A stretch of 62,638 bases of DNA from a virus (taxonomy: Duplodnaviria; Caudoviricetes), in IMG/VR virus record IMGVR_UViG_3300046792_000108, positions 1 through 62,638 of that record, one strand, 5' to 3'. The translations under genes and the position numbers were made by a program. Under the pieces are notes generated by a model. The model ran no database searches, was not told the origin of the DNA, and saw nothing but the letters and a program-made list of their open reading frames with translations. Positions 38,861-62,278 of this stretch are shown in pieces. Numbering within the stretch: the first letter of the stretch is position 1; each line of letters starts with the position of its first letter.

Positions 38861-39154
38861 ATGAACTTTTTGAAAAAACTACACCCAGTATTTCAATTCA
38901 TCATCATTGGAGTACTGTTGATTCTGTTCTTCTACACCTGCATCCACTTCCGGGTAGGTCCTCTCCCGGCATTTATACTGTTCATCGTCCTGTTGCCACT
39001 AGGAGCTTCAATCACAACTCATGTGGAAAACCAGCTCCAGTACAACCTGGAGGACACAGAGATGGACTTGCTTCGAAACATTGAGGCTCGAGTCGTCGGA
39101 GACGAGAAGAAGGTATTGCAGAAAGTTAAGTCAATACTGGGGAAGAAAGCATGA
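38861..39154 (+). CDS. Two-TM membrane protein
   Basis: Two hydrophobic helices; TAAGGAG RBS. Confidence 0.7.
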   Translation: MNFLKKLHPVFQFIIIGVLLILFFYTCIHFRVGPLPAFILFIVLLPLGASITTHVENQLQYNLEDTEMDLLRNIEARVVGDEKKVLQKVKSILGKKA

Positions 39155-39963
39155 AAAAGCTTTTATTCTTTTTTCTCTTGTATTTGCCTGCCTTCGGACA
39201 GATTACGAACTACGTGACAGGAAATTTGGGGGCCGCCGGATCAACCTGTTCTACAACTTCTCCTTTCAACTGTGTAGTTCTTCAACTCCCCCCTGGTACA
39301 CAGAGTGTTGGGATCAATATCTCAGGTACTTGGGTAGCAACTGTTCAGTTTGAAGGGACGACAAATAATGGTAACACTTGGGTAGCTGTAACTTCGTTTC
39401 CTGTCCCAAACGGGTTGGCTGTAACATCTTCTACGACTAATGGGACCTGGGTCTCTTCGACTGCCGGATTCACGCATGTGAGGGTGAGAAACTCAGCATT
39501 TACCAGCGGGACTGTTGTAGTTGAACTTTCTGCCTCATTCGCTACAAATCTGGGAGAAGCTTTAGATTCTAGTGGGAGAGTAATCACTACCTCTACTGCC
39601 GGAGTCCCTCTTAGCTATACCGCTCAACAAGGAGCTACTCTTCTGAATGCAGCACCTACAGTTAGTGGAGCTAATGCTGCGGCAGTAGTAACCTTAACTG
39701 GGGCTGCGGGGTTTAGAGTGTGTGTTAGATTTATCGCAGTGAAGGCAACCGGGGCTGCGGCTACTAGCACCCTGACTGTTTCAGATGGAGCAACCGTTGT
39801 ATTAGACCTAGGAACCATCTCTGCAACGCTTGCTGGACCTTCAATCAATTTCTTCAATGCCGTTCTTCTGTGTGGTTCTCCGGGGAACAACGTTGTGGTT
39901 AATATCGGAGCCGGTGGAGTTGGAGCTATTACAACCACCAGTGTGATTGCGGATAGACAATGA
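39151..39963 (+). CDS. Signal-peptide-bearing putative virion protein
   Basis: MKKLLFFFLLYLPAFG|Q; GTW..TVQFEGT.NG..W beta-sandwich pattern. Confidence 0.75.
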   Translation: MKKLLFFFLLYLPAFGQITNYVTGNLGAAGSTCSTTSPFNCVVLQLPPGTQSVGINISGTWVATVQFEGTTNNGNTWVAVTSFPVPNGLAVTSSTTNGTWVSSTAGFTHVRVRNSAFTSGTVVVELSASFATNLGEALDSSGRVITTSTAGVPLSYTAQQGATLLNAAPTVSGANAAAVVTLTGAAGFRVCVRFIAVKATGAAATSTLTVSDGATVVLDLGTISATLAGPSINFFNAVLLCGSPGNNVVVNIGAGGVGAITTTSVIADRQ

Positions 39964-42953: not shown

Positions 42954-42998
42954 GTTCAAACCGCCGCCGGGGCGTTAACCGTGCGAGAAGGAGATAGT

Positions 42999-44127: not shown

Positions 44128-45414
44128 ATGTTGATCTTCAAGTTGCTTGTTCTCCCTTGGCTCGTTGGAGCTTTAGGGAGATTTGTCAACCTATTCGATC
44201 TGACTGACTGGATCAGCATGGAGAGCCTCCGGGTTCTCATGAATGAGACCAAGTGCGCTACGTACTTCAACACGACTTACAACAAGGAGTTCAAACAAGC
44301 CTTCCCTGTTGGCAGTACCGTGCGCGTTCCGCTCCCACAGCGCTTCCTGGTTACCGACGGGCTCGGTTATCAGCCTCAACCAATTAACCGCATTCATACC
44401 ACTGTGAACGCTGATCAGTTCATCGGAGTTCACTTCGAGTGGGATGCTGCGGAAAAGGCTCTCAAGATGGGTCGTGATAAGGACTACATCAAGAGAGAAT
44501 TCATTGACCCCATCATGAAGCAGCTGGCGAACGAGCTTGACAGTCGCTGCGCACTGTGGGCTTATCAGAATACCAACAATGTGACCGGGGTCCTCGGGAC
44601 CAACCCCACAACTGTCACGCCTTTCGCCCAAGCTCGTCAGCGACTGAAAGAATTAGCTGCAACCGGTAAGGAAATGTGCATGCTCATTCCTCCAGCTGTG
44701 AATACGAACATGGCGACCAACCTAAACACTCTGTTCAATCCTCAGACGGATATCTCCAAACTGTTCAAAGACGGACAGCTTGGCCGGTTGCAAGGGTTTG
44801 ACTGGTATGAGGAAGTCAACCTCTGGTCGCATGTTGCCGGGACCTGGGCTGGTGCAGTAACAGTTAACGGAGCCAATCAGGTTGGTTCTTCGATCATCAT
44901 CACGGCAACTGCCGGCGACACCTTCAAGAAGGGAGATGTCATTTCCTTCGCCAATGTCAACGCGGTCAACCCGGTCTCACGCCGCATCATCGGTTCTGGA
45001 GTCAAGCATTTTGTGGTGACTCAGGATCTGACTGCGGCTGGTGGTGGAGTTGATGTCCTTCAGATCTCACCTCCAATCTTTGGACCTGGTTCTCAGTATC
45101 AGAACGTTGATGCTCTTCCGGCTAATGGCGCAGCACTGACATTGTGGCCAGGGACTGCAGCACCTAACGGCAAGCAAGGATTCCAGTCCCTCGGCATGAC
45201 TGAGAACGCCTTTGCCCTGGTTGGACTCGAGATGGAACTCCCGGAAGCTGTGGAAGTCTCGTCTCGCGCCCGTGATCCGCAGACGGGAATTGCCATCAGC
45301 TTCATCCGGCAGTGGGATTCTCTCCTCTACCGCATGACCAACCGGTTCGATATGCTCTTCGGATTCGGAAACCTATACCCTGACAACTGCGCTGTTCGCG
45401 TGGCCTGCGCATAA
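44128..45414 (+). CDS. Major capsid protein (P22 gp5 coat family)
   Basis: GSTVRVPLP, KKGDVISF, RFDMLFGFG..P; position. Confidence 0.92.
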   Translation: MLIFKLLVLPWLVGALGRFVNLFDLTDWISMESLRVLMNETKCATYFNTTYNKEFKQAFPVGSTVRVPLPQRFLVTDGLGYQPQPINRIHTTVNADQFIGVHFEWDAAEKALKMGRDKDYIKREFIDPIMKQLANELDSRCALWAYQNTNNVTGVLGTNPTTVTPFAQARQRLKELAATGKEMCMLIPPAVNTNMATNLNTLFNPQTDISKLFKDGQLGRLQGFDWYEEVNLWSHVAGTWAGAVTVNGANQVGSSIIITATAGDTFKKGDVISFANVNAVNPVSRRIIGSGVKHFVVTQDLTAAGGGVDVLQISPPIFGPGSQYQNVDALPANGAALTLWPGTAAPNGKQGFQSLGMTENAFALVGLEMELPEAVEVSSRARDPQTGIAISFIRQWDSLLYRMTNRFDMLFGFGNLYPDNCAVRVACA

Positions 45415-45422
45415 GGAGCTAC

Positions 45423-46406
45423 ATGAAGAAAACTTTTCTCTACGCTTTAATCGTGGGGATTCTCTCGATTACTCCTTTGGGAGCGCAGACGATCCTTACC
45501 AACACAACCTTAGCTGCGGCTTTGAACGGCACGTCCAGGGATCAACTCCTGACCGTGGCAAGCGCAACAAACATCAATGCCCCAAGCCCTCAGGACGTCA
45601 CGAAACAAACCTATCTTTACATCGACAGGGAGGCTGTGGAAGTCCGGGCTGTTAACGGGACCTCAGTTTCTGTGATCCGTGGAGTCTCGTCAACTACTGT
45701 AGCAGCTCACAAAAGTGGTGCGGTAGTTTTTGTCATTCCTGCCTCACTAACGCTCTACACAGGAGGTAGGTACGGGGATGCTCCTGGTGTACCACAAGGG
45801 TCTTGTACCAGAAGCAATGAGCTTGTTCTGCCTCGAATCCAGTTCCAGAGCGGTATGATCTCTGATTGCTTGGGGGGTCAATGGGTTACTGGGGACATGC
45901 TCCAAACTTCACGAACTACGAACAGCCTATTGAGATCACCTGAACCAGGAGCTACCGCGCTAACCGCGCTGGAAACTGCTGGTACGGCCGCAGCAGCTGC
46001 CACAGAAATCTACTGTACAGAAGTTACACTCCCCTACAGTATGTTGCTGACTGGTGCAGCTGTTCTTAATGGGACTACTGTCGGAACCAACAAGCACTTC
46101 ATTATCCTTTATGACTCATCGGGTAACGTGCTTGCCACTTCCGCAGTAGCCGGAACAACCACCGCCGGAGCTTCAGTTTATCAAAAGCTGAATTTCGTCA
46201 GCAAGTATCTGGCAGTTGGCCCGAACCGGTACTTCGTCTGTGATGGTCTGAACGGAACGACTGATACTATCCGTCATGCAATCACGGCAGTCAATGACAA
46301 TATCATCGGAGGAGCAGTAACTGGTCAAGTTTTTGGCACAGCCGCAGCTGTTACTCTCCCAACAACTTTTACAACGGCCAAAGCACCGTACGTGGCCTTG
46401 TTCTAA
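45423..46406 (+). CDS. Signal-peptide-bearing putative capsid decoration/virion protein
   Basis: MKKTFLYALIVGILSITPLGA|Q; IDRE..V.RG..T.AAHKSGA.V domain; follows coat. Confidence 0.75.
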   Translation: MKKTFLYALIVGILSITPLGAQTILTNTTLAAALNGTSRDQLLTVASATNINAPSPQDVTKQTYLYIDREAVEVRAVNGTSVSVIRGVSSTTVAAHKSGAVVFVIPASLTLYTGGRYGDAPGVPQGSCTRSNELVLPRIQFQSGMISDCLGGQWVTGDMLQTSRTTNSLLRSPEPGATALTALETAGTAAAAATEIYCTEVTLPYSMLLTGAAVLNGTTVGTNKHFIILYDSSGNVLATSAVAGTTTAGASVYQKLNFVSKYLAVGPNRYFVCDGLNGTTDTIRHAITAVNDNIIGGAVTGQVFGTAAAVTLPTTFTTAKAPYVALF

Positions 46407-46989: not shown

Positions 46990-47724
46990 ATGAGCATAGC
47001 CATTTTGGATCTCATTGCTGCGGCGTATCTTGAGTTCAACTTCATCGCAGCGGGAGAACCCGTCCCGGATGAGGATGCCGTCTTTGCACTCAATAAGATG
47101 AACCTCATCCTGGATGAATGGGCTGGTGATGAGTTCTATGTGTATAACACCACCATTCAACTGTTCAATTACACTGCCAATCATCAGCCGACCCTGATTG
47201 GCCCCACAGCTGTGGCTCCGGATTTTGTTCTCCCAGGACCACGCCCAGTCGGGATTAGGGATGCTGGTTGGATGTTAGGAACTGTGAGGGTTCCTCTTGA
47301 CATCCTAGACGATGATGGTTGGTCATCCACTTCGATCAAGACTCAGAAGGCAGTTACTCCCCTGAAACTTTACTACACACCCAACGTCCCGAACGGGTCT
47401 ATCTTCCTGTGGCCCATTCCAACAACCTCAAGTCAGGTAGAACTTGAGATGGAAAACCTATTGCAACAGGTTGCCGATCTGAATACTCAACTAGACTTAC
47501 CCACAGGTTATCAGGCTGCAATGACTTTGACTCTGGCAGAGACACTTGAACACTCTCTGGGATTTCCTCCAACTCCAGGGTTAGTTGCCGGGGCGAACAG
47601 GGCAAGGTTGAAGATTCAGCAACGCAATGTGGAATCACCTCGCTCAGGGACAAGAGATGTTGGGATGCCTGGCGGAAAAGCTACGAGTTGGAACTTTAGA
47701 ACCGGTCCTTATAGGAGAGGGTGA
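46990..47724 (+). CDS. Head-tail adaptor (P22 gp4-like)
   Basis: DLI..A....GE......AL..MN..LDEW; LP.GY..A...LA; position. Confidence 0.75.
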   Translation: MSIAILDLIAAAYLEFNFIAAGEPVPDEDAVFALNKMNLILDEWAGDEFYVYNTTIQLFNYTANHQPTLIGPTAVAPDFVLPGPRPVGIRDAGWMLGTVRVPLDILDDDGWSSTSIKTQKAVTPLKLYYTPNVPNGSIFLWPIPTTSSQVELEMENLLQQVADLNTQLDLPTGYQAAMTLTLAETLEHSLGFPPTPGLVAGANRARLKIQQRNVESPRSGTRDVGMPGGKATSWNFRTGPYRRG

Positions 47725-49535
47725 TGGGAGGTCAATTCGGTCTTGTAGGACCAACATATTCGTCTCAGTCTCCTCGCGCTGATGGTCAGAGGTGTATTAA
47801 CTTATACCCTGAGAGGGATGAAAGTGGAGAGGGGAAATACGAGTGGACTCTTTACGGAACTCCTGGACTGGCTCTCGCCTATGATCTTGGAGTAGGAATT
47901 ATCCGGTGTATCTTTTACTCAGGCACTCGGTGTTTTGCCATAGCGGGGAACTTTCTGTGGGAACTGATGGCTGATGGTACTAAGGTAGAGATTATGCAGG
48001 TAGCAGCAGATGCTAACCCTGCGTACATCTCCTTTGGTATTCAACAGCTGATGGTAGTGTCGGGGTCTCATGGGTATTGTATTCTTCCCAATGGGACAGT
48101 AGTTGTAGATCCCCCAGGGTTGGTTGTACCTAGACAGGTTGACTATTGTGATGGATTCTTCGTTGCAATGAGAACAGATGGTAAATGGCAGGTCACCCTG
48201 GACGGAACCGACTGGACCGACCCAGGATTCATCTCTGCAGCCTCAGTTTTCTCCGAATCTCCAATCTCTCTCATCTGTGATCATCGAGAGGTTTTTCTAC
48301 TTAGTGCAAAGAGAGGTGTCTTTTACCAGAACACCGGAAACACCTTCCCATTTGATGTGATCACCGGATCAATGACTGAGATGGGCATCGGAGCTATCGA
48401 CAGCATCACCCGATTGGATAACTCGATCTTCTGGTTGGGTCAAGATGAGCGTGGCGGTAGAATGGCCTGGAGGGCTCAGGGACAAACTCCTGTAAGGATA
48501 AGCAATCATTCCACTGAGCATTTTTGGAACAAGAAGAAGCAGTATCCAACGATTGCAGATGCCATCGGGTGGGCATATCAGGAAGAAGGTCACACTTTCT
48601 GGGTCGTATATTTCCCTACGGCGAACACTACATGGGTTTTTGATGCGGCTACTAACATGTGGCACGAGAGATCATTTCGAGATAAGACAACCGGAAAAGA
48701 TCTTGCACACTTAGGTAGATGCCACGCCTATGCCTTTGATCGGCACCTAGTAGGAAGCCGAGTGGACGGAAAAATCTACGAGATGAGCCTTCCTGTCGAT
48801 AATGGAAACGGAGGATGGAACTTTGTCACAGATGCAGGAAATCTCATCCATCGAATCAGGATTGCTCCTCCTATCTCTCGTGAGAATGAACGAGATCGTT
48901 ACAGCCGATTGACTGTGGAAATGGAAGCCGGGTTAGGTCCTCAGCCTCCGTTACAAGGAGGAGGGATTCCGACTATACTGACTTTGGCAGATATCAACGG
49001 AGCTGTTTGGGATGTAACTATCAAAGATGATGGACAGACCTTCGGGTTTGCTCCGAGTCCCAACATTGCTAAGGTTTATAAGCTGACTGAACCGGGGTTG
49101 ACTACGACTTGGCAGTTAGGAATTGATGCCCAACAAAGATTCACAACTACAGCTATTGCTTTGGACATAACTCAACCTGTGGGCATCGACATGATTAGCG
49201 TAGCAGGAACAATGGAGTTCACTTTGCAGGTAACAGCTCAGGGCCTGATTCAAACAGTAGCAACTGGAGAGATCTCTAGAGACCCACAACTCATCGTATC
49301 CTGGTCTGACGACGGAACCAGGACGTGGAATGTGAATCCTCGCATACTTAACTGTGGTCAAGCTGGAGATTTCAAGCGAAGAGCAATCACCAGCCGCATG
49401 GGTGCTTCTCGTAATCGCAACTATAAGATTGAGTGCAGTGACCCAATTCCGTGGAGAATCTTGAACGCCACCCTGAAGGGTGACCAATTCCAACCAACCG
49501 AAAGGTATGTGAAGCAAGTAGGTAAAATCTCATGA
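47721..49535 (+). CDS. Tail hub / packaged-DNA stabilization protein (P22 gp10-like)
   Basis: CINLYPE..TPGL, YQEEGHTF..TWVFD..WHER, WSDDG. Confidence 0.85.
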   Translation: MMGGQFGLVGPTYSSQSPRADGQRCINLYPERDESGEGKYEWTLYGTPGLALAYDLGVGIIRCIFYSGTRCFAIAGNFLWELMADGTKVEIMQVAADANPAYISFGIQQLMVVSGSHGYCILPNGTVVVDPPGLVVPRQVDYCDGFFVAMRTDGKWQVTLDGTDWTDPGFISAASVFSESPISLICDHREVFLLSAKRGVFYQNTGNTFPFDVITGSMTEMGIGAIDSITRLDNSIFWLGQDERGGRMAWRAQGQTPVRISNHSTEHFWNKKKQYPTIADAIGWAYQEEGHTFWVVYFPTANTTWVFDAATNMWHERSFRDKTTGKDLAHLGRCHAYAFDRHLVGSRVDGKIYEMSLPVDNGNGGWNFVTDAGNLIHRIRIAPPISRENERDRYSRLTVEMEAGLGPQPPLQGGGIPTILTLADINGAVWDVTIKDDGQTFGFAPSPNIAKVYKLTEPGLTTTWQLGIDAQQRFTTTAIALDITQPVGIDMISVAGTMEFTLQVTAQGLIQTVATGEISRDPQLIVSWSDDGTRTWNVNPRILNCGQAGDFKRRAITSRMGASRNRNYKIECSDPIPWRILNATLKGDQFQPTERYVKQVGKIS

Positions 49536-50335
49536 TGAAAAAAGTTTTCGTAGTATTGATGCTTTTCGTGTTTCTCGCTTGCACTGTTGGATTCATGCAG
49601 ACCCACACTTTTGCTGCGTTGGATACAAACAATGCTTTTACTGGGACTAATACCTTCAATGGGTCAACTTCATTAAGCACGATCACCTCAAGTACAAAAC
49701 TCAGCGAGATTGCAGCTCCTTCTTGTCTAGCCGGGTTTGACTTCCTCTGGGCAGATTCAACAGCTCATCGAGTCAAAGAATGTGATAACGGGGGGTCTGC
49801 GACTCAAGTCGTTCATTCTGGGGTAGACGTTAGTACCGCGGATCAGGTAACAGTTACTCACCTGGCGTCTCCTCTTCCTCAAGCTCAAGGAGGAACTGGA
49901 CAGAACTCATCGGCAACTTTTCCGCTTTCAGGGGTTGTATCTTCGACTATAAGTTCTGTTGATCTTACTGGTCAAAATGCCGCCATAACTACTACTAACC
50001 TGAACTCAACAACCCTGGTCGCAGGTCAGTATGAGGTGTCTTGGAACTCGAAAATTACTACTGCTGCGGGGGCTTCATCAATATTAGGCGGTTTAACCTT
50101 GGGGTGGACAGATCCGGATAACACGACTCAGAGTTTAACCGTGGTGGCAACTACTCTTGGGGGGACTGTTGCCCAATCCTCAGCCAATAACACCACAGGA
50201 ACTATGTTACTTGGAGTTCCAGTTCTTCTAAACGTGAAGTCCAGTACGAACATCACTTATGCCTTTGCTTATGCTTCAAATGCTGCAAACATCATGACTT
50301 ACAATCTCCATATAAAACTGAAAGCACTGCAATAA
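49532..50335 (+). CDS. Signal-peptide-bearing tail-associated protein
   Basis: MKKVFVVLMLFVFLACTVG; NAFTGTNTF; LPQAQGGTGQ fibre motif. Confidence 0.7.
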   Translation: MMKKVFVVLMLFVFLACTVGFMQTHTFAALDTNNAFTGTNTFNGSTSLSTITSSTKLSEIAAPSCLAGFDFLWADSTAHRVKECDNGGSATQVVHSGVDVSTADQVTVTHLASPLPQAQGGTGQNSSATFPLSGVVSSTISSVDLTGQNAAITTTNLNSTTLVAGQYEVSWNSKITTAAGASSILGGLTLGWTDPDNTTQSLTVVATTLGGTVAQSSANNTTGTMLLGVPVLLNVKSSTNITYAFAYASNAANIMTYNLHIKLKALQ

Positions 50336-51440: not shown

Positions 51441-51919
51441 TCTCGATTATTCATCCGTGTCCTTTGGAGAACCTACCTGTGGTGTGGGGGTGGCTTTCTC
51501 ACTTTGCTAATGAGACATTGGATTCTAATGCCCCGAATAATCTCGGGGAATTTCTTCGTAGTGAAGCTATATGTAGGATGAATGGCGGAAAGACCTTCTG
51601 TATCCATAACGATGGGGTAATGGTCGGAGCTGTTTGGGTTGAAAACATTGGAGATGGTATCGGGGTTGGGCATCTGGTATTTGATCCTGGCCACACCATT
51701 TCTACCTCAGAAAAGCTTTATTCTTCAAAATTGGTCATGAAAGAGATCTTTCAACACTTCAGGAAAGTGATGTGGGCATTCTTTGCAGATAATCGAGCTT
51801 TCCGCGTGTTCCTTAAAAGAATGGGAGCAATCGAGGAAGGCATATTTCATCAACACGTCAGGCGTGGGTCTGACTTTGTGGATCAGGCCTGGATGGCTTC
51901 GTTCCCGGAGACCAAATGA
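51437..51919 (+). CDS. GNAT-fold protein
   Basis: ADNRA..FLKRMGAIEEG; typical position before ejection proteins. Confidence 0.7.
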   Translation: MISIIHPCPLENLPVVWGWLSHFANETLDSNAPNNLGEFLRSEAICRMNGGKTFCIHNDGVMVGAVWVENIGDGIGVGHLVFDPGHTISTSEKLYSSKLVMKEIFQHFRKVMWAFFADNRAFRVFLKRMGAIEEGIFHQHVRRGSDFVDQAWMASFPETK

Positions 51920-53295
51920 AAATTCTGTTTGAGTTGTGGTTACGTCCTATCGCTCAAGGGATTATTGGAACAACTGCTGCATTACTTGGCATTGGATTAG
52001 CCAGTGCAGCAGGAAGTGCAGCCTCAGGAATCATCGGGTCAAGCGCTGCTAGTAAAGCTGCTCAAGGACAATCAGATGCGGCATTACAAGCTGCGAATCT
52101 ACAGCATCAGGATGCTCAGGCCGCGTTAAAGTTCCAGGAACAGCAGTATCAAGATTCGATTACCAGGATGCAGCCGTGGTTGAGAACTGGTTCTGGGGCT
52201 ACTAACACGCTGGACTACCTGATGGGAATGAGTCCTCAATTCTTAAATTCAGTGACTCCTGGTACTCCTTCTCAATCAACCCCTACACTCCCGAATATTG
52301 CAAGTCCTGGTGGACAAGTTCCACGGACAGGTATTCCTCAGGTTTCTTCTGGTAATCCTTTAGCTAATGACCCCAATCTAGGACCGCTTGGGCCGAATAT
52401 GACTGGTGGCGGGACTCGTCAGCCAATTCAAGATGGTTCGGCTACTGGAGGAGGTCCGGTCAATCGGTTTGCAGCAATGGTCCCGCAGACAGGGATGGCT
52501 ATTGATAACAATGGAGTAGTTAATGCCGGTATCCATCCTGGCAATACTACTGCTAATGCGAATCCCGGGACGGTGCCGTTCCAGAATCCCGACATCGGCA
52601 CCTTTAACGCCGGGCCTCCAGGAACAGTTACAGCCAGCACGGGGGGAGCGGTTACGGCAGATGGTTCACCGGGGATGGTACCGAAAACCGACGGTGGAGA
52701 TCCTAATGCCATAGCGGCAGCTTCACCTGGTAGTGCTCAAAGCACGTTACCTGCCGGGTTCTTGAACCAGATTTGGGACAAGCAGTTTCAAGCCCCAGAT
52801 CAATTAACCGAGCAGAATGACCCAGGATTTCAGGCTCGTCTAAGACTTGGGTCTGACACTCTTGAGAGATCTGCTGCAGCTCGTGGCAATTTACTCACCG
52901 GAGGAGAAGCTAAGAATCTTGACCAGTTTGCTCAGGATTATGCTTCGAACGAGTATGGTAATGTGTATAATAGAGCTGCGAACACGTTCTCAACAAATTA
53001 CAACATCTTCAAACAGAATCAAAATGATATCTTCAACCGTTATGCAACCTTGGCTGGGTTCGGTCAAACAGCTGCCGGAGAATTAAACAACTCTGGGGTA
53101 GCAACCTCGGGTCAGGTAGGAAACACCCTCTTGACCTCTGGTGCTCAAATTGGTAGTGATATTCAAGGAGCAGCCGCTGCCAGGGGTTCAGGATATGTAG
53201 GGAGTGCAAATGCGGTTACTGGAGCTATTGGTAGTGGAATCAATAGTACGGCTGATCTACTAGCCTTATATCAAGCAATGCAGAAACACGCATAG
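51916..53295 (+). CDS. DNA ejection protein (P22 gp7-like)
   Basis: Gly/Ala-rich N-terminus; DPGFQARL..ERSAAARGNLLTG..AQDYASNEY. Confidence 0.8.
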   Translation: MKILFELWLRPIAQGIIGTTAALLGIGLASAAGSAASGIIGSSAASKAAQGQSDAALQAANLQHQDAQAALKFQEQQYQDSITRMQPWLRTGSGATNTLDYLMGMSPQFLNSVTPGTPSQSTPTLPNIASPGGQVPRTGIPQVSSGNPLANDPNLGPLGPNMTGGGTRQPIQDGSATGGGPVNRFAAMVPQTGMAIDNNGVVNAGIHPGNTTANANPGTVPFQNPDIGTFNAGPPGTVTASTGGAVTADGSPGMVPKTDGGDPNAIAAASPGSAQSTLPAGFLNQIWDKQFQAPDQLTEQNDPGFQARLRLGSDTLERSAAARGNLLTGGEAKNLDQFAQDYASNEYGNVYNRAANTFSTNYNIFKQNQNDIFNRYATLAGFGQTAAGELNNSGVATSGQVGNTLLTSGAQIGSDIQGAAAARGSGYVGSANAVTGAIGSGINSTADLLALYQAMQKHA

Positions 53296-53304
53296 GAGAA
53301 AGAA

Positions 53305-55302
53305 ATGTCAGGTTATCCTTTACCAGCTCTCGATGTGAAACCTCCACAACCTGGTCCTAATGCCCTGGACATCTATAAAGGGATGTTGGGGATGCAGATC
53401 ATGCAGCAGCAAGTCCAGAAGAATCAGATGAATTTGAACGACCAGAAGATTTTCCGTCAATCTTATCTGGACTCGATTGACCCAAAGACTGGTCGTCCTG
53501 ATGATGACAAGACGATTTCTCTAGCTGCTCAGAGAGGTGCTTCTCCTCAGGGAGTTCAAGCATATCAAATTCATGTTCAGGACTTGGCTGACAAGAGAGC
53601 TAACTTGGTCAAAACCAACTATGACAATGCAAAACTCCAAACTGATCTTATCGGACAAGCGGCTCAAGCTACACTTAGTGCTCCCCCAGATAAGAAACAG
53701 CAAGTATACCAACAATGGGTCCAGAAGCTTGAAAACAACAAGGTGATCCAACCTGGTCAGTTCGATCCAAACACTGTCCCTGATGATGATACCTTGAAAT
53801 TCTATGCGGCAAGCTCTCTACAAGCAAAGGATCAATTGGATGAAGCAAGAAAAACCCAAGAACAACAGACTAAACAACCAGGGGAAGCAGCGGATGCGGC
53901 CCATAAGCAAAGATCTAATGCCGCGACAGTCCTGGCGGGAGCTAAGACTCAAGAAGATTATTCAGCGAAGTGGGGTCAACTTCCAGCATCTGTGGCACAG
54001 GCATTTCCAAAACCCGAGGAATGGACTCCGAATGCACGTCAGACGATTTTACAGGCAGGTATGACCCCAAAAGACATCGCTGATAGCCCGATCGCCAATC
54101 AAGCTGCCCAGGCGTGGTTATCAGACCCAAAGAATAAGAAAGCTGACGGTACTCCCCCTACAATGGTTGATTTTTTGCGATACGAGAAGACTATCCCGCA
54201 ACAGTTTACAATGAGCGGTGGAGGGTTGATTCCGCCAACCGGAGGGAACCCGCCTCTGTCTGTACCCGCAGTAACTCCCGGACCGACTGGACCACCCTCT
54301 TCTTTGACTCAACCAATCGCTAATGTCCGTACGGGAGCCCCACTTGTGGCAAGCAATACCCCACCTCCACTACCAGGTGCTGGGATGCCTGCCCCCTCGG
54401 TTTCAGTTCCAAACACTCCGATGGCTCCTGAAGAAGCTGCGAAATTTGGACTTGTGCCAAGCGGGAAAAAACCTGATGGAAGTCCGATCTACACTGCTGT
54501 TGATCCAGAGGCCGAGTTTAAGAGACAGCAAACAACTCTGTCCAATGATGTCCCTGAGAGAATCAGAGATCAAGTTAAGTCCATTATTAACTATCAGTCT
54601 CCCATGCCTCCACTCGGTAGAAATAACCCGATCAGCCAAGCCATTGACTATTGGGTGAAAAGAGTTGATCCGAATTATGATGTGAAAGATTTTGCATCTC
54701 GAAACAAAATGATGTTGGACTATACAAATCACTCAAGCGGGACTGGGAAACAAATTGATGCGATCAATACCGTTGGTGGACACCTGTCTACTCTTAATGC
54801 GGCAATCGACTACTTGGACAACGGATCTCTCAAGCAGATGAATCGTCTGGCTAACTTTGTAGGAGTCCAAACTGGCAGTGATAAGAAGAAAGTATTTGAC
54901 ACTATTATTCACCGCATTGGTCCTGAAATCACACAGGCATATATCTCTTCTGGAGGTTCTGCTGGAGAACGTGGTTCTAACGAAGCAGATTGGGATCCGT
55001 CCTTAGGTCCACAAGTACTAAAGGCTACGAGTGGGGTGACGGCTCAACTCCTGGACTCAAAGATTGAGTCTGTGGAACAGGGTTGGAAGACGAACATGGG
55101 GAGGGATGACTTCCGTCAGAGATTCCTGACTCCTAGGGCTAGAGACGCGTTTGAAAAACTTGTTCCTCAGTCTCCAGTTCAGACTCAGTTTGATAAGCAG
55201 AAGACTCAAGGTGCTCCGGTTGTGGCCCCTGCGCCGCGTCAACAGTTGACTCCCGATCAGATCAAAAAGAGGGATCAAGATTTAGGAGTAGTCTATAAAT
55301 GA
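53305..55302 (+). CDS. DNA ejection protein 2
   Basis: Q/P-rich helical protein; position. Confidence 0.7.
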   Translation: MSGYPLPALDVKPPQPGPNALDIYKGMLGMQIMQQQVQKNQMNLNDQKIFRQSYLDSIDPKTGRPDDDKTISLAAQRGASPQGVQAYQIHVQDLADKRANLVKTNYDNAKLQTDLIGQAAQATLSAPPDKKQQVYQQWVQKLENNKVIQPGQFDPNTVPDDDTLKFYAASSLQAKDQLDEARKTQEQQTKQPGEAADAAHKQRSNAATVLAGAKTQEDYSAKWGQLPASVAQAFPKPEEWTPNARQTILQAGMTPKDIADSPIANQAAQAWLSDPKNKKADGTPPTMVDFLRYEKTIPQQFTMSGGGLIPPTGGNPPLSVPAVTPGPTGPPSSLTQPIANVRTGAPLVASNTPPPLPGAGMPAPSVSVPNTPMAPEEAAKFGLVPSGKKPDGSPIYTAVDPEAEFKRQQTTLSNDVPERIRDQVKSIINYQSPMPPLGRNNPISQAIDYWVKRVDPNYDVKDFASRNKMMLDYTNHSSGTGKQIDAINTVGGHLSTLNAAIDYLDNGSLKQMNRLANFVGVQTGSDKKKVFDTIIHRIGPEITQAYISSGGSAGERGSNEADWDPSLGPQVLKATSGVTAQLLDSKIESVEQGWKTNMGRDDFRQRFLTPRARDAFEKLVPQSPVQTQFDKQKTQGAPVVAPAPRQQLTPDQIKKRDQDLGVVYK

Positions 55303-58300
55303 TAACTGATCCTCAAGACAGTTCGGTCCCGATGTTCTCCCCAGAGGGAAAGTTAGCTCAAGTCCCACAAGAGAAATACAAAGATGCCATCGGGCAGCAA
55401 TTTTCTCCAGCTATCGCTGTGACATCCCCAGAAGGTCAAGATGCGTATCTTCCGCATGAGAAGGTAGATTCAGCAATTAAGGATTACGGGTTTGCTCTTG
55501 GACCTGCTCAGCAACAACCTCGCACAAAGATGTACACCAAGTCGGGTCAGTATGCTGAGATTCCTGAGAACGCGAAGGGCTACGCGCAGCAACAAGGCTG
55601 GAAGCCAGGAGTCCAGATGACCAGTCCTTTGGGTATTGAACTAACTGTTCATCCGGACGAGGCAAAAAAAGCTTTGGATATGGGTTGGGGGATTGGTCCA
55701 GCACAGCAACAAGAGAAACCAGGTTTCATGACTCGAACTCTTGCTGGTATGGCTGGTATAGATTCCGGAGACATTGCTAATACTAGATTCTCTGGTTCTG
55801 CTACGGGGCGTAATCCCGCTTTTAAGGACTCAGGAACTAATCTCTATTCGGCCGGGCAAATGACTTATGGGAAAACCCTCGAATCGAATAGCGATATCCT
55901 AAAATATGCTGGAGTAAGTCCCAAAGTTTATGCAAATCTAGATGACAAACAAAAAAACCTGGTTCTAATGGAAGCCAGAGCTAAACTCGGTATGCCTTGG
56001 GAAGAAAAAGTTGCCGAAAACCTTCCGGTTGTTGGTTCGATGATCCGTTCGGGGACTAAGGCAGTACAATCTGCTAAGAAGGGGAATATCTCTGAGGCTG
56101 CTGGTCATGGCCTTGCGGCAGGATTACCCGTCTTTGGTTCTCAGGCCGAAGCATCCGGTGAAGAATTTGGGCAAGGACATGTCCAGGAAGGACTAAAACA
56201 AGCCGGATTGGCATTAGCTCCATTTGTGGCAGAACCTGCGGTTAAGGCAGCAGGAAAGCTTGACTTCTCTACAACTCCTCGTAGCCCATTATCCAAAGTT
56301 GTGATGCCGGATAATGTCCCCGCTTACCACGCAGCGGAAGAACTAGCTAAACCCTCCATCGTTACAGCGGCCAAAGAAGTTGGGGTGAAACTTGAGACTG
56401 CCGATGATTTGCTCCAGGCTGTGAAACAGGCGAAGCAGAATACGTTGCTAGATGCTCATGAGTCCGCCGGAACTGGAAAAACCATAGCAGATTTAGCTCC
56501 TGAAGATCAGAAAGCCGTTTCACAGAAAATGGCTGCACTCGATGCAGTTCAGAGACATGTTGAAGATGCTGTTAAGATCGCGAAGGATGCCCCAGAACAA
56601 CCAACTAAAAAAGAAGCTGCCCAGAGAATGCTGACTGGAGCTGCGAAGATGGCTGGTGGAATCGGGTTTGCCCGAATGATTCCTGGCGGTCATTGGGGCT
56701 TGGAGATCGCTGGAGTCGGGTGGGGATTAAAGGATTTAGGCGGTGGGTTACACGATCTGGTCAGGTCTCCAATCCTAAATGAGACCAGACTCAACGGAGC
56801 GGTTAAAGACACATTCTCAGGTATTAAACCTGAGATTCGTCCTTCCGCTACCCCAGGAATTACTAAACCGCCTTTCGTTCCGGCAACCGATATCTCAGTT
56901 GAACATACCGGGAATGTAACTGCCCCCAAAAGACCTTTTAGCGACATCCCCGTTACTCCCGACGAAGAGCCAACAGAGCCTGAGACGGTCTCTCCATATA
57001 CGCCATATACGGGAAATCGCGCCGTGACACACGAGACCATCCCTGGCCCACCTACGCAACCGCACGGGGACATCAATGTCACACCTGACGAAACATTGTA
57101 TCCAGAAAAGCCAGTAATTAAACCGCCAGTGAGTGAAACAGACATCTCTCCTCCATCTACTATCAATGTTCCGAAAACGATACGAGACCCGAAGACCGGG
57201 AGATTTACCAAAAATCTCCAGAGAGGATCAAGCACTACTGAAGAAGACGCGGATACCTTCTCGAAACTCCCAAAGATGACTGTTGGAACTGTTGAGGGAT
57301 CTCAGAATGACACTGCTTTATTCGCTCAAGCAAAGAAGAATCTCGGTCCTGATGCTACCCTGAGTCAGGTTGCTCAAGAAGCTCAACGGATGAAGATGAA
57401 TCAGGGATCTACTCCGCCGAGTAATAAAGTTGGTGGATATAACCCAGCTGTGGAAACAGAGGGATTGCCATCCTCTCTCAGAGATGTAGTTCCTCGCGAG
57501 ATAACTCCAACAGATGTGAAGAAGTCCTATCTTCAGTATGATATTCCTCGTTTGAAAAAACTCCTGGCAGATGCTTCGGATGAGGAGAAACCATATTATC
57601 AGTCAATGATCGATCAACTGACTGAAAAACAAAAGAACATGCGCGGATCAGGGAGGCCTGAGGAGTTTACCAAGCTCCCTTTCTTCAGCCGCGCCGCAGA
57701 CGTCGTTGAACGGAAACTGGCTCCTTGGTTCTCACCAGACCAAGCCTTTAACACCTTGAAAAATGCAGGGGTCTCTGCTGATGAGTTGGACACGATTAAG
57801 CCGTGGTTGGATCAACAGGGGAAGAAAGTCCAGAAACAAGCTTTGTTGGATCACATAGAGAACAACAGGTTGAAGGTGAATGTCACGATGAAAGGTGAAA
57901 ATTCATTGCATCCAGAGGCTCAAGCTGAACTAGATAAGATTAAAGACCCAGAAGTCAAAGAAGCTATGAAAGACGTTCTGGTGAATGGTCATTTAGAAGA
58001 CTTTGTAGATGGGGAGTTTGAGCCCGGTCAGTTGTCAGAGACCTACGGATTGAACGATGCTCAAGAGGAACAACTGATCAAACTAATTGACAGGTTTGGT
58101 GACATGAAGAATATCAACTCAGATGTCCCGTCTGATCTCCACAAGTGGAATAGGTCCATGTATGCTGCTCAAGATTTAGTTCCGGTAACTGATGAACATA
58201 CCCAATCAGCTATCCATAATCTCCCAGCAATTTCGATTGGAAAAGGTCAGTCAGTTGACGAAGCTATCAATGAATATTTCAAATCTCATCCAGATGAGGG

Positions 58301-59660
58301 AGTAGTTCCCTCAAAGAAACTAACTGAGATAACTAAGGATGTTGGAAAGGATGAGGATTACAGATACTTTGATGGAGCCAAAAAACTCGGCTACCGAATC
58401 TTTCAAGACCCGGACAATGTAAACAGCTATCTTATGAAAAAGGGAGAGCCGATTCGAGTAAATGGAGAAGGAAACGAGGATAGTCCTGAACAATTAGGTC
58501 AAACAGGACCGAAGTTTGAAGCAGACCAAAAAATTAAAGCTCACGAGATCTATAAAGCTGAAGGTGGAAAGTACGGTCAAAGTGGAACTCAGTACGGAGA
58601 GTACACTTTACCTGGTGGTGAGAATTACCGCGAGATGCTGATTCAAGCTCCGATCAAAGATATTGAGCATAAGGGGGGAAATCTCTACGGTGAATCCAAC
58701 AATTTCTCTGGTGGTCACTTTGACGAACCAAACGTGCTTGCTCATGTTCGGATGAATGATCGAACAATCGACGGGAAGAAGACTCTGTTCGTTGAGGAAG
58801 TTCAGTCCGACTGGCATCAACAAGGAAGAGAAAAAGGATACCAGGGACAACCTAATCTTAAGATTACAGAATCCACCCGTAAAAGCTCCTACGGGAACAG
58901 AAATCAATTTGAGGTTGAATACCCCGGAGGCAGGGGAAGCATCTTCATTGACAGACCTGATGTAACTACTCTAGAAGAAGCACAAACTTGGGTAAGAGAA
59001 CATCCTGATAATCTTATGCAACTCTCAGTGGTCCCTGACGCTCCTTTTAAGAAGGATTGGCATGAGCTTGCGATGAAACAAGTCCTCGACACGGCTGTGA
59101 GAGAAGGTTACGACCAAGTTGGTTGGACAACAGGTAAACAGCAGATTGACCGTTATTCCGATCAACTTCGTCAGAACGTGGATGAGATTAGGTATTCAAG
59201 GGATCTATCTAAACCAAATTCAGTGAAGATTGAGGCTTTTTCAAAATCCTCAGACTCTAGGTTTCCGACTTTTTCTGACTCCATTCCTCTTCAAGGGAGT
59301 ATTAAATTGAGGGGAGAGACTGTTTCCCTAGATGATGTGGTTGGAAAAGAAATGGCCCAAAAGATTAGAGAATCTAAAGAAAACGGTTCATTCAAAGGTG
59401 ATGATCTCACAATCGGAGGCTCAGGCATGAAAGGGTTCTATGACGAGATGCTTCCACAGTTTATGAACCGATACACAAAGAAGTGGGGCGGGAGAGTTAA
59501 AGATTCAACTTTAAGTGTTCCTGAAAACAGAGAACCCGGTCTTGAAGAGAATCAACCTGTCCACACAATCGAGATCACCCCAAAGATGAAAGAAGAGATT
59601 AAGAAACACGGCCAGCCGATAAGCGGCCTAACCGAAGGACATGAAGAGGTTGCTGCATGA
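55299..59660 (+). CDS. Large ejection protein with polyvalent-protein-type C-terminal domain
   Basis: 1453 aa; four N-terminal repeats; LPGGENYRE..EEVQSDWHQ..PDAPFK. Confidence 0.75.
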   Translation: MITDPQDSSVPMFSPEGKLAQVPQEKYKDAIGQQFSPAIAVTSPEGQDAYLPHEKVDSAIKDYGFALGPAQQQPRTKMYTKSGQYAEIPENAKGYAQQQGWKPGVQMTSPLGIELTVHPDEAKKALDMGWGIGPAQQQEKPGFMTRTLAGMAGIDSGDIANTRFSGSATGRNPAFKDSGTNLYSAGQMTYGKTLESNSDILKYAGVSPKVYANLDDKQKNLVLMEARAKLGMPWEEKVAENLPVVGSMIRSGTKAVQSAKKGNISEAAGHGLAAGLPVFGSQAEASGEEFGQGHVQEGLKQAGLALAPFVAEPAVKAAGKLDFSTTPRSPLSKVVMPDNVPAYHAAEELAKPSIVTAAKEVGVKLETADDLLQAVKQAKQNTLLDAHESAGTGKTIADLAPEDQKAVSQKMAALDAVQRHVEDAVKIAKDAPEQPTKKEAAQRMLTGAAKMAGGIGFARMIPGGHWGLEIAGVGWGLKDLGGGLHDLVRSPILNETRLNGAVKDTFSGIKPEIRPSATPGITKPPFVPATDISVEHTGNVTAPKRPFSDIPVTPDEEPTEPETVSPYTPYTGNRAVTHETIPGPPTQPHGDINVTPDETLYPEKPVIKPPVSETDISPPSTINVPKTIRDPKTGRFTKNLQRGSSTTEEDADTFSKLPKMTVGTVEGSQNDTALFAQAKKNLGPDATLSQVAQEAQRMKMNQGSTPPSNKVGGYNPAVETEGLPSSLRDVVPREITPTDVKKSYLQYDIPRLKKLLADASDEEKPYYQSMIDQLTEKQKNMRGSGRPEEFTKLPFFSRAADVVERKLAPWFSPDQAFNTLKNAGVSADELDTIKPWLDQQGKKVQKQALLDHIENNRLKVNVTMKGENSLHPEAQAELDKIKDPEVKEAMKDVLVNGHLEDFVDGEFEPGQLSETYGLNDAQEEQLIKLIDRFGDMKNINSDVPSDLHKWNRSMYAAQDLVPVTDEHTQSAIHNLPAISIGKGQSVDEAINEYFKSHPDEGVVPSKKLTEITKDVGKDEDYRYFDGAKKLGYRIFQDPDNVNSYLMKKGEPIRVNGEGNEDSPEQLGQTGPKFEADQKIKAHEIYKAEGGKYGQSGTQYGEYTLPGGENYREMLIQAPIKDIEHKGGNLYGESNNFSGGHFDEPNVLAHVRMNDRTIDGKKTLFVEEVQSDWHQQGREKGYQGQPNLKITESTRKSSYGNRNQFEVEYPGGRGSIFIDRPDVTTLEEAQTWVREHPDNLMQLSVVPDAPFKKDWHELAMKQVLDTAVREGYDQVGWTTGKQQIDRYSDQLRQNVDEIRYSRDLSKPNSVKIEAFSKSSDSRFPTFSDSIPLQGSIKLRGETVSLDDVVGKEMAQKIRESKENGSFKGDDLTIGGSGMKGFYDEMLPQFMNRYTKKWGGRVKDSTLSVPENREPGLEENQPVHTIEITPKMKEEIKKHGQPISGLTEGHEEVAA

Positions 59661-62278
59661 AGAAACTGCTTTCGTTGTTAATCCTTGTTAGCTCTTTGTT
59701 TGCTCAGGACCGAGTTGCTCCACTTCCTAACTCGAAGCCACAGTTCTTTACCAAGACCGGGACTTTATGTTCGGGATGCAAGCTTTATAGCTTTGTGACA
59801 GGTACAGTAACTCCACTTCCGACTTATACGGATTCAAGCGGGGCTGTGCAGAACACCAACCCCATTACTATGGGTTCGGACGGTAGACCTCCTCAGGAGA
59901 TTTGGCTTGGAGCGTTTGCTTATGACATCACCTTGAAAGACTCGTTTGGGGCAGCTATTTATACTGTGAAGAATATCTCGGTCCCGAATATTCAGGCTTT
60001 GACTCAAGTGAGTCTCACAGTGACTGGACCTGTGATTATCGCATCCTCGACACCAGGAATCGCTAGTAGCTCTTCTGTACTTGAATGGGACGCGTTATAT
60101 TCAAATGGAACCAGTATTCTTACTGACAAATTCCAGTGCAGCGATATCCCTGTTAGTTTCATCTCGGCGAATCCAGCAACTGTTTTAACCTGTAATCATA
60201 CAGGGAGTAGCGGGGGCGGATCAGTATTATTCAATTTTCCATTCTTATCAATATCCGTAACAGGTCTTTCTACATTATCCGGCGGAGTGTGTTATTCATT
60301 CGAGAATGGACAATCTGTGGTCAAAGTATCCGTCTCATGTGGATATACAACCTGGGCATTAGCTTTGGCTGCATGTCCTTCCACAGGATGCATTCTGGAC
60401 GGTTGGGCACCTGATGTTCCTCTTGCACTCGGAGCATTCGATACAGCCTCGAATACGAAGCCTGTGACGGTGAGACTTGGACCGTACAACTTTACAGCTA
60501 CACAAATCACCGTACGCCAAGGGCTGGACTTTGCCGGAGCTGGGATTGTAAACACCAACGTTACTTCCAACGGGACCAATGCACAACCTCTCTTCGTCAA
60601 TCCCCAGGTCAACAACAACGCGATCACGGTGAAGATCCACGACTTTAGCGCGAACGCCCTTTCAGGCAATACCTCGCAGGATGGCTTCTTCTTCGACTGC
60701 TCCACGCTGACGAATGCTGGAGTGGAACTATCGCGCTTCGACAACATCATCTTCAACGGCTTCAAGGGAGCGGTTGTCCACTTCAAGGCCACACAAGACG
60801 GGGCATCAGGTTCGATTGGATGCACTCAGGGGAACACACTCGCCAATATCACTGCCATACGTCCTACGGGCGCAACCGGAGCAAGCCAGAATGCTCTCCG
60901 TATAGAAGGCGGCGCAGGGCAGTTCGATTTCTGGAACTGCTGGTTTGATGGGCAGTCAAGCGACACTGGAACCAATGTCTTCGTAGGCACGACCGGAACG
61001 CAGTCGCCGTACTCAATTCGCTTTCACGACACGACAAACCAGAACGGCTTTGCCTACCTGTTCGATGGTTGCATTGGATGCACAACTGAAAAAGATCACC
61101 TTGAGGTCATTAAGGGAGTCTACAACTTCGCCAACACGGCTTCGCCTGTCGTTGGCTTCCACTCTGCTAATCCTTACATCAACTCGAATGTGGCGGTCAA
61201 TGCAGGCAACGGCTATATCGTCAATATCCCCGCTGGAGCTCCGCAAACAGATGTAATCGTAGAGTCGCCACTGATCGGCGGCCAGCCCGACAAGTGCGTA
61301 ATCAATGCCGCGAACGGCGCAAACGTCCAGATATTGAATGCGCAGTATCAGCCGAACAACACGCCTACAAATGTATGCGTAACCTCTGGCATGACCTTTA
61401 CCGCTGCGCCAGCGGCCACGCTCGATATTCGGCGCGCTCACACCGTACAGCTTTCCGCATCTGGCACGTCAATCACAACGCTCAGAAGTGACCTCCAGCC
61501 TGGTGAGATAGTCACATTCTACCCTACGGGTAATGCCCAATTTGCTACAGGTGGAAACCTTTCATTAGCCAATTTCGGATCTCCTTTAGTTCTGACTAGC
61601 GGGGACAGTATCACCTTCATCAGAGTAGATGCTGGAACACCAGCCTTTATTGTTCAGTCAGTCGTAAAACTTGGACGCCCTACTTTCCAGAGCTTCACGG
61701 CCAGTGGCACACACACAATCGCGGCCGGGGTGACTGCCGAGAAAGTTACACTTTGTGGTGCGGGCGGAGCTGGTGGAGGCGCGACAGCAGCCAATAATGG
61801 AGGCGGCGGTGGCGCAGGTGCGGCAGCGGTTAAGTACCTCACAGGGCTTACCCCAGGCAACACGATCACGGTAACGGTTGGTGCTAAAGGAACAGGAGTA
61901 TCAGCAGCGGCGGGAAATTCCGGCACAGCTTCGTCTATCGCGTCTGGGACTCAGACAATCACGACTGTTACAGCCCCAGGAGGAATCGGAGGAAACGCTA
62001 ACGGAGCACAAAGTGCCGGAGGGGCAGGCGGTGGAATTAGCACAAATGGTGATCTCAATTTTGGAGGTAACCCTGGTGCTGGAGATTGGTCAACTATCAG
62101 TGGCGCGGCTGGTGGTGGCTCGATTTGGGGCGGAGCAGGTACTGATTCCGCTGGTGGCAATCCTGGTGTGGCATCTACGGCAAACAGTTGCAGTGGTGGC
62201 GGTGGTGCAGGGGCCGGGGCCAACCGCACCGGAGGGAACGGAGCGGATGGCCTGGTGGTATTTGAATGGACAAACTGA
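59657..62278 (+). CDS. Tail fibre/tailspike with N-terminal signal peptide
   Basis: MKKLLSLLILVSSLFA|Q; anchor QFF..G..LY..GT.TP..TYTD..NTNPI; beta-helix-like middle; Gly-rich C-terminus. Confidence 0.85.
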   Translation: MKKLLSLLILVSSLFAQDRVAPLPNSKPQFFTKTGTLCSGCKLYSFVTGTVTPLPTYTDSSGAVQNTNPITMGSDGRPPQEIWLGAFAYDITLKDSFGAAIYTVKNISVPNIQALTQVSLTVTGPVIIASSTPGIASSSSVLEWDALYSNGTSILTDKFQCSDIPVSFISANPATVLTCNHTGSSGGGSVLFNFPFLSISVTGLSTLSGGVCYSFENGQSVVKVSVSCGYTTWALALAACPSTGCILDGWAPDVPLALGAFDTASNTKPVTVRLGPYNFTATQITVRQGLDFAGAGIVNTNVTSNGTNAQPLFVNPQVNNNAITVKIHDFSANALSGNTSQDGFFFDCSTLTNAGVELSRFDNIIFNGFKGAVVHFKATQDGASGSIGCTQGNTLANITAIRPTGATGASQNALRIEGGAGQFDFWNCWFDGQSSDTGTNVFVGTTGTQSPYSIRFHDTTNQNGFAYLFDGCIGCTTEKDHLEVIKGVYNFANTASPVVGFHSANPYINSNVAVNAGNGYIVNIPAGAPQTDVIVESPLIGGQPDKCVINAANGANVQILNAQYQPNNTPTNVCVTSGMTFTAAPAATLDIRRAHTVQLSASGTSITTLRSDLQPGEIVTFYPTGNAQFATGGNLSLANFGSPLVLTSGDSITFIRVDAGTPAFIVQSVVKLGRPTFQSFTASGTHTIAAGVTAEKVTLCGAGGAGGGATAANNGGGGGAGAAAVKYLTGLTPGNTITVTVGAKGTGVSAAAGNSGTASSIASGTQTITTVTAPGGIGGNANGAQSAGGAGGGISTNGDLNFGGNPGAGDWSTISGAAGGGSIWGGAGTDSAGGNPGVASTANSCSGGGGAGAGANRTGGNGADGLVVFEWTN

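Follow-up and report, generated by a model that had tools for sequence, protein, structure and literature searches.

IMGVR_UViG_3300046792_000108 is an IMG/VR record of a tailed virus (Duplodnaviria; Caudoviricetes), a soil-type P22-like podovirus, the 62,638 nucleotides of which are analysed here in full and are referred to as the window. Textbook tailed-phage assembly is wholly cytoplasmic; five genes of this genome, amongst them the tail fibre gene, open with a leader of the Sec type. The leaders recur in hundreds of homologues, the fibre leader stands directly ahead of a particle-binding domain that is leaderless in deposited phage relatives, and cysteine pairs in two unrelated protein domains accompany the trait. 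We consider the chance to be about even that these are genuine Sec/signal peptidase I leaders, and that the proteins carrying them would mature in the periplasm and attach to phage particles at lysis. The form of the leaders is best explained as an adaptation to a host whose mature exported proteins usually begin with glutamine (Gln, Q).

Leader-bearing genes of the window and their relatives

The leader-bearing genes are named here by their first coordinate.

39151..39963, plus strand: 39151, a 270-aa leader-bearing protein (leader 39151-39198)
45423..46406, plus strand: 45423, a 327-aa leader-bearing fibre- or decoration-like protein, encoded directly downstream of the capsid gene (leader codons 1-21, 45423-45485)
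49532..50335, plus strand: 49532, a protein of 267 aa encoded downstream of the gp10-like gene; its leader is strongly hydrophobic and ends with Met at -1 or in a lipobox-like FLAC
59657..62278, plus strand: 59657, the tail fibre gene, 873 aa with 17 cysteines, the last gene of the morphogenetic operon
1..436, minus strand: N-terminal part of the origin-spanning gene (218 aa), leader 386-436, MRKLLLLVTLLMSSAFA then Q
62281..62638, minus strand: C-terminal part of the origin-spanning gene, translated across the 137-nt overlap of the ends, with 6 cysteines in the mature protein

The ends of the window share 137 nt with 1 mismatch, and the genome is circular or circularly permuted, with a length of ~62.5 kb. 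A first-pass annotation, made from the letters of the window alone, had placed leaders on 39151, 45423, 59657 and the origin-spanning gene and a less clean one on 49532; each was found again, including AFA/Q (a slash marks the predicted cleavage site) on the origin-spanning gene. All five open with MKK or MRK, followed by a hydrophobic stretch and a junction of a small residue and Gln: MKKLLFFFLLYLPAFG then Q in 39151, MKKTFLYALIVGILSITPLGA then Q in 45423, the leader of the fibre with the anchor domain directly after it, that of the origin-spanning gene, and the less clean MMKKVFVVLMLFVFLACTVGFM then Q in 49532. Two Lys or Arg residues are found amongst the first five positions of every leader, and the 9-residue Kyte-Doolittle maxima of the hydrophobic regions range from 2.9 to 3.5. 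Small residues stand at -3 and -1 in four (A-F-G/Q, L-G-A/Q, L-F-A/Q and A-F-A/Q), and 4/5 have Gln at +1 of a canonical site; 49532 has Met at -1 (G-F-M/Q). Behind the leaders, the mature parts contain no segment resembling a membrane span (19-residue hydrophobicity maximum 0.99-1.66, the highest segment containing Arg) and hold 4, 4, 2, 6 and 17 cysteines, the last two figures being those of the origin-spanning protein and the fibre. The four plus-strand leader genes start by ATGA overlap or at most 9 nt from the upstream stop, some with Shine-Dalgarno cores; indeed, the start of 39151 overlaps the stop of a gene for a 97-aa membrane protein (ATGA translational coupling), and that of the fibre overlaps the stop of the ejection-protein gene 55299-59660.

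Leaders were scored throughout with rule-based scripts, a crude detector, which in a control flagged 2/257 portal, capsid, scaffold, adaptor, hub, ejection, terminase and needle-like homologues from 77 related loci (gp4-like 0/54, gp10-like 1/43). At E <= 0.001, 392 of 8,000 scored candidates are homologues of protein 45423. A leader can be recognized by eye in 118 of the 120 listed, the remaining two being N-terminally short, whilst the strict script, which misses a two-segment variant, finds it in 110/120. The leaders vary in sequence up to a small-x-small end, after which come the invariant Q and the conserved QT(I/L)LTNTTLS; Q follows the junction in 109/110 family members, and in the family alignment A1 the residue Q22 and four cysteines are invariant. 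In IMG/VR, the script flagged a leader in 33/39 loci with full-length matches to 45423, and the six unflagged loci comprise three truncated where the contig or locus stops, two run-on open reading frames (ORFs) and one two-segment leader. A leader is also present in 8/8 aligned relatives of 39151. For 49532, the full-length relative P0281 reads ...CAGFA/QTRTF at the aligned place, and because of this the junction in the window looks like a degraded canonical site. The fact that charge, hydrophobicity and junction are kept, and sequence is not, supports the view that the leaders behave as export signals.

The trait belongs to the genome as a whole. Where the 45423 homologue of a locus bears a leader, the fibre has one too in 6/6 cases by eye (4/6 by script), against 0/7 for loci with the leaderless 45423 form. 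Amongst plus-strand genes of at least 120 aa, 56/365 in the former loci have a leader (53 with a small-Q junction), compared with 7/367 in the latter (3 with a small-Q junction). In the relatives, the leader genes have set positions: one directly behind the capsid gene, one flanked by the gp4-like and gp10-like genes, and one downstream of the ejection genes. Some of their products are 600-950 residues long with 16-28 cysteines.

The particle-binding domain and the cysteine pairs

The fibre can be divided as follows.

59657..59704, plus strand: leader, codons 1-16 (MKKLLSLLILVSSLFA) then Q
59705..60031, plus strand: particle-binding (anchor) domain, residues 17-125, placed by homology to the N-terminal domains of tailspikes and fibres
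59768..59779, plus strand: CSGC turn with Cys38 and Cys41, within the anchor domain

Identification of the gene comes from PHROG tail-fibre families and from a Pfam Gly_rich_2 match at the C-terminus. The fibre had been described as Cys-rich with three motifs, and these are located at residues 38-41 (CSGC), 240-245 (CPSTGC) and 472-475 (CIGC) of a protein with 17 cysteines; the motif LFA/Q had been placed directly ahead of a virion anchor, and homology to anchor domains does begin right after the leader. When 50,697 phage records were searched with tblastn, only residues 19-124 were matched (9 phage records), with 36-41% identity to related podovirus tailspikes and fibres over this region, and a search of viral contigs for loci related to the whole fibre found none. 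The corresponding part of the fibre of Xanthomonas phage PBR31 is called the virion-binding domain in the portion of the PBR31 paper available to us.

In the deposited relatives this domain stands at the very start of the protein. It begins at residue 4-6, after MAV... or MS... and with no leader, in 11/11 phage relatives examined of 37 matching. The 11 are made up of three genomes from metagenomes and eight isolates, amongst which are Xanthomonas PBR31, Rhodoferax P26218, Shewanella X14 and Pseudomonas PAE2. The P22-like or PBR31-type tailspikes of PBR31, P26218, X14 and Vibrio, Thalassomonas and Pseudoalteromonas phages have a homologous anchor domain and, as in the window, a P22-type portal and coat; the 11 examined relatives of this type have neither a leader nor the cysteine pair of the turn, whereas the fibre of the window has, in addition, a leader of 16 residues and CSGC. 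Relative to these leaderless forms, the fibre leader is an addition of 15-18 residues ahead of the particle-binding domain. A phmmer search with residues 1-130 gave 12,181 relatives, and 110 of the best 150 representatives bear a leader (111 counting P0249, by eye), with Q after the junction in 90/105 leader-bearing relatives. Seven leader-bearing anchors (P0168, P0187, P0220, P0241, P0242, P0253 and P0264) end in AQA/A or ANA/A and not in a small residue before Q. The C-terminal half of P0168 is 38-45% identical to tail fibres of Burkholderia phages, a hint that phages of Betaproteobacteria share the trait, which may thus extend past one host phylum.

The cysteines of the turn go with the leader. 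A CxxC pair in the columns of Cys38 and Cys41 is found in 80/110 leader-bearing representatives, but in only 1/40 of those classed as leaderless, and the lone exception (P0249) has a leader by eye; the leaderless forms read LAGG, LSGG and similar at the turn. The raw Fisher test gives p ~6e-16, a value that is not corrected for relatedness. In 45423, the pair C198/C273 is present in 38/38 leader-bearing loci, as against 1/37 (position 198) and 0/37 (position 273) in leaderless homologues. Cysteine pairs of two unrelated domains thus occur only in leader-bearing forms, a pattern in the alignments that fits folding in an oxidising periplasm.

The model of 45423 (predicted local distance difference test, pLDDT, 77) resembles the distal domains of minor tail and collagen-like fibre proteins of a Streptomyces phage and mycobacteriophages, and also a capsid-associated chain of cyanophage A4. 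Its leaderless homologues have only the C-terminal domain in common with it and differ at the N-terminus. The post-capsid slot is common to both forms, with 34/36 leader-bearing and 23/25 leaderless loci adjacent to the capsid gene.

A model in which each gene yields a long exported and a short cytoplasmic form from two starts was rejected for both the fibre and 45423. There is no in-frame ATG, GTG or TTG between fibre codons 15 and 40, and no in-frame start just after the leader of 45423; translation from a downstream start, which the first-pass annotation had named as grounds for abandoning the idea of export, has no suitable internal start in either gene, and a leaderless isoform is consequently unavailable.

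Proposed two-compartment assembly and the alternatives

The P22-like morphogenetic operon is a plus-strand block at 35.4-62.3 kb, containing the terminase, a P22-type portal (Pfam E 9.5e-112), the scaffold, a P22-type coat, the gp4-like adaptor, the gp10-like hub, the ejection proteins and the terminal fibre. Its members outside the exported set, and the lysis region (1229..2810, after the origin), include the following.

44128..45414, plus strand: capsid protein ORF, Pfam P22_CoatProtein, with an 18-residue hydrophobic N-extension
46990-47724, plus strand: gp4-like adaptor, PHROG adaptor Ad3, leaderless
47721-49535, plus strand: gp10-like hub, PHROG head closure Hc3, leaderless
51916-59660, plus strand: three ejection proteins (459, 665 and 1,453 aa), cysteine-free
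1229-1738, plus strand: SLT-type endolysin, leaderless
1735-2415, plus strand: coiled-coil protein, N-terminally anchored
2412-2810, plus strand: multi-span membrane protein

Portal, scaffold, gp4-like, gp10-like and ejection proteins have no leader in the translations of the window, which for the first four agrees with what had been noted earlier. Late in infection, the fibre 59657, 45423 and the short fibre-like 49532 would be sent across the inner membrane. In the periplasm the leader would be cut, the new N-terminal Gln could cyclise to pyroglutamate, and the cysteine pairs would be oxidised to disulfides, whilst in the cytoplasm the capsid, portal, adaptor, hub and ejection proteins would build DNA-filled, fibre-less particles. 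At lysis the holin would breach the inner membrane, the two pools would mix, and the mature fibre would dock on the tail hub through its particle-binding domain, which begins one residue after the cleavage site; the leaderless cytoplasmic hub (46990..49535, gp4-like and gp10-like) should be the place of attachment. Protein 39151 and the origin-spanning protein would be exported too, and may be accessory envelope proteins as opposed to virion parts. Cleavage, export, pyroglutamate, disulfides and late docking are steps that we infer from the sequences. In vitro, P22 tailspikes and the phage L protein Dec bind to particles that are already complete, and the holes formed by canonical holins are very large, so docking between two pools is workable. 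A complex prediction that paired fibre residues 17-125 with the gp10-like hub and the gp4-like adaptor scored 0.00 in a run that had no controls, and speaks neither for nor against docking. The first-pass annotation had proposed that outer parts are exported, folded oxidatively and joined to particles at lysis, or else block receptors in the envelope; the export-like leaders and the leader-bound cysteine pairs stand, whilst presence in the virion, joining at lysis and receptor blocking keep the rank of proposals.

Export may be real and the proteins may act only in the envelope, where they would mask or destroy receptors and exopolysaccharide from inside, exclude superinfecting phages, keep progeny from adhering to debris or aid lysis. 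The N-domain of 39151 has the YomS/XepA fold and its gene follows that of a small membrane protein, some fibre homologues bear pectate-lyase-type or esterase domains, and the Porphyromonas gingivalis phage study discussed below reads phage-encoded leader proteins, in the part of it available, as modifiers of the host surface. We nevertheless hold this to be unlikely: the fibre retains a whole particle-binding domain right behind the cleavage site, its gene has the operon position expected of a fibre, the window has no leaderless fibre or internal start, and 45423 and its leaderless homologues alike lie behind the capsid gene. Moreover, all fibre-like proteins of the window bear leaders, and if none of them reached the virion it would lack a fibre. 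It is a good deal less probable still that the N-termini are uncleaved helices, which would for instance hold fibres at the membrane on its cytoplasmic side or be buried in the tail hub, with assembly staying cytoplasmic. The hydrophobic N-extension of the capsid ORF, in the window and in locus L080, and the missing canonical -1 residue of 49532 speak for such helices. A structural contact, though, would predict conserved sequence, and beyond charge, hydrophobicity and small-x-small/Q the leaders are unconserved; their basic N-terminal residues would put the bulk of the protein outside; the frequency of Q after the junction in both families matches the host processing rule described in the available parts of the Q-rule papers cited below; and the cysteine pairs occur only with leaders. 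Almost no weight can be given to the idea that the whole pattern is an artefact of wrong starts, or of ORFs spuriously extended into N-termini that are hydrophobic by chance. In GC-rich relatives the longest ORF does often overshoot the true start, but the four plus-strand leader genes of the window have starts coupled or close to upstream stops, the leaders recur in hundreds of homologues, and the control families gave very few false calls.

Several observations weigh against assembly in two compartments. The list of 150 fibre representatives is biased, since the query included the leader and the CSGC turn, and an underpowered tree test of the link between leader and CxxC found only 2 independent pairs on supported branches (sign test p = 0.5). 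Virion disulfides are possible without export, as described in the available portion of the report on phage Milano. The fold of 39151 is that of an exported lysis-cassette protein more than of a virion part, and the site in 49532 has Met at -1. The capsid ORF opens with MLIFKLLVLPWLVGALGR ahead of the conserved N-terminus; codons 19-30 correspond by homology to the N-terminus in relatives, and between codons 6 and 31 there is no possible start. The ORF must therefore start at or near 44128, and the extension is seemingly translated. Of the capsid relatives, 33/35 begin with MANNF- or MPNNF-like sequence and have no extension, and L080 has a similar one; such N-termini are here not always export signals. 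This caveat, absent from the first-pass annotation, lies outside the exported set.

The closest parallel in culture is provided by Tunturi_1 and Tunturi_2, podoviruses of Tunturiibacter (Acidobacteriota). Leaders, read in Tunturi_1 only, are found on gp12 (...AAASA/Q), gp13 (...AGFA/Q), gp14 (...LANA/T), gp16 (...LANA/Q) and gp17 (...LAGA/Q), of which the depositors label gp14 as tail spike and gp17 as virion structural protein; these five hold 20, 10, 21, 2 and 32 cysteines respectively, against 0-8 in the other structural proteins. Tunturi_2 was compared by gene layout, which is the same. As in the window, the structural region holds a block of large Cys-rich proteins with leaders, 4/5 of which have Q behind the site, and tblastn of the window proteins against Tunturi_1-3 gave no homology except one 47-residue match. 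The main text of the Tunturi paper (PMC11924767) contains neither the term 'signal peptide' nor proteomics. On the other side of the balance, the Tunturi annotations are the depositors' own, with one weak match only to PHROGs, and in Tunturi_3 a leader is seen on 0/28 structural-region proteins, so that not all acidobacterial phages share the trait.

Filamentous phages have virion proteins, pIII and pVIII, with Sec-type leaders, and the disulfides of pIII are formed in the periplasm before assembly. Their coat proteins stay membrane-anchored and assemble by extrusion without lysis. The leader-bearing proteins of the window, by contrast, have no membrane anchor in the mature part, and the window phage is a tailed podovirus with a lytic cassette.

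The literature searched, with supplementary gene tables outside the scope, contained no description of a tailed phage with Sec leaders on its tail fibres. The nearest known report, as far as the available text goes, is that of the P. gingivalis phages (Matrishin et al. 2023, PMC10367356), in which five genes with Q-rule leaders, their function not known, are read as host-surface modifiers, and in which predicted signal peptides of capsid proteins are dismissed as protease-cleaved. Like the window, these phages encode Q-rule leaders; a fibre with a particle-binding domain, as in the window, does not figure in the text consulted. The accessible part of the Hankyphage paper uses missing signal peptides as an argument for phage origin.

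Somewhat short of an even chance, in our view, is a broader picture in which a large and mostly uncultivated set of tailed phages (this clade, the unrelated Tunturi_1 and Tunturi_2, and some with Burkholderia-like fibre tips) assembles in two compartments. Heads and hubs would be made in the cytoplasm, whilst fibres, spikes and decoration-like proteins would be Sec-exported, disulfide-bonded, N-capped and attached when the holin joins the compartments, with Q-rule-like processing also in Acidobacteriota. If this were true, it would define a new branch of Caudoviricetes morphogenesis and explain the Cys-rich fibres of soil phages. Annotation pipelines should then keep leader-bearing 'tail fibre' genes and not discard or re-label them, the chemistry of the leaders (Q at +1, Shine-Dalgarno use) would serve as a host-prediction feature for soil viromes, and the Q-rule might extend to Acidobacteriota. 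Tunturi_1 and its host are in culture, so the export hypothesis is open to experiment.

Host chemistry and further genes of the window

Heavy use of Shine-Dalgarno sequences is poorly compatible with Bacteroidota. Shine-Dalgarno cores lie upstream of 56/90 window genes, against a background of 17%, and a Bacteroidota host was rejected on these grounds, for which strong Shine-Dalgarno use had already been put forward. Acidobacteriota, at first only a guess, is now supported, though not shown, as the host phylum. A Terriglobales metagenome-assembled genome (G001, unpublished) contains a syntenic 38.8-kb contig on which homologues of 45423 and 39151, both with leaders, are encoded. In 372 kb of G001, 20/67 leader-like ORFs have Q behind an admissible cleavage site, compared with 3/40 in E. 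coli K-12 (250 kb; p = 0.007), as counted by a crude script that misses the 39151 and 45423 leaders of the window. A PF05096 glutaminyl cyclase is encoded in G001 and in 13/61 sampled Acidobacteriota genomes; these points of host chemistry, enrichment and cyclase, rest on the unpublished G001, and the Tunturi leaders add to them. Gln after the cleavage site seems enriched in leaders of G001 (loci L007-L026) and of Tunturi_1 (L049), 4/5 in the latter. The names attached to homologues include Candidatus Angelobacter for one and Candidatus Nitrosotalea for another. Against an acidobacterial host, a full-length 45423 homologue is found only in G001 of 401 Acidobacteriota genomes, the matches in 6 others covering a short part of the query only, and the G+C content of the window is 43-52% as against 53-65% in the relatives.

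The Q-rule papers (Bochtler et al. 2018, PMC5837995; Szczesniak et al. 2023, PMC10653852) propose, in the portions available, that the pyroglutamate cap protects exported proteins from aminopeptidases; within those portions the rule is treated as Bacteroidetes-specific and Acidobacteria are never mentioned. The window leaders are like the Q-rule substrates of signal peptidase I in that Gln follows the leader, and differ from them in that the substrates are phage fibre proteins and that the phage uses Shine-Dalgarno sequences heavily. They would thus work like Q-rule leaders, and are not filed here as a Bacteroidota case.

The gene ahead of 39151 completes a pair.

38861..39154, plus strand: small membrane protein, 97 aa, two-span, with a strong Shine-Dalgarno sequence and a weak DUF4131 match below the cut-off

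The N-domain of 39151, modelled at pLDDT 84-95, has the fold of YomS and of the exported PBSX protein XepA (Foldseek against YomS, E 2.8e-4, template-modelling score 0.67; Atlas lead to the XepA domain, 0.89). No Pfam family, the XepA domain included, was found for it at E <= 0.01, and the likeness is one of fold. The host of PBSX XepA and SPbeta YomS is monoderm; 39151 differs from them in having no Pfam match and, in relatives, in standing between tail genes, namely the gp4-like and gp10-like genes. On the strength of the model, 39151 may be exported in an accessory role and not form part of the virion. The pair at 38861-39963 may be a second lysis-related or envelope-acting pair, apart from the main lysis region. 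For the origin-spanning gene, no Pfam family was found.

The C-terminal ~130 aa of 49532 form a module common to 45 proteins (P0278-P0322), and in P0312-P0314 this module is combined with the same anchor domain as in the fibre. The module seems mobile, as it is found behind leaders, fibre anchors or carboxypeptidase-regulatory-like domains, or alone as 147-aa proteins. The ejection proteins contain 0 cysteines in 2,577 residues, and their homologues in the eight relatives listed are also cysteine-free. An ORF at 50970-51440, for which no family was found, encodes 156 aa with 8 cysteines (5.1%) in CxxC-like clusters and overlaps the end of 50336-51049. The large terminase is in two parts, an N-part at 36190-37098 and a C-part at 38126-38851, with ~1 kb and two ORFs between them. 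An Rfam scan of this insert found no intron or other family, and one of its ORFs (37073-37669) has a weak motif resembling a twin-arginine signal (TAT_signal, E 0.008, below the cut-off). A terminase split similar to that of the window is present in locus L060.

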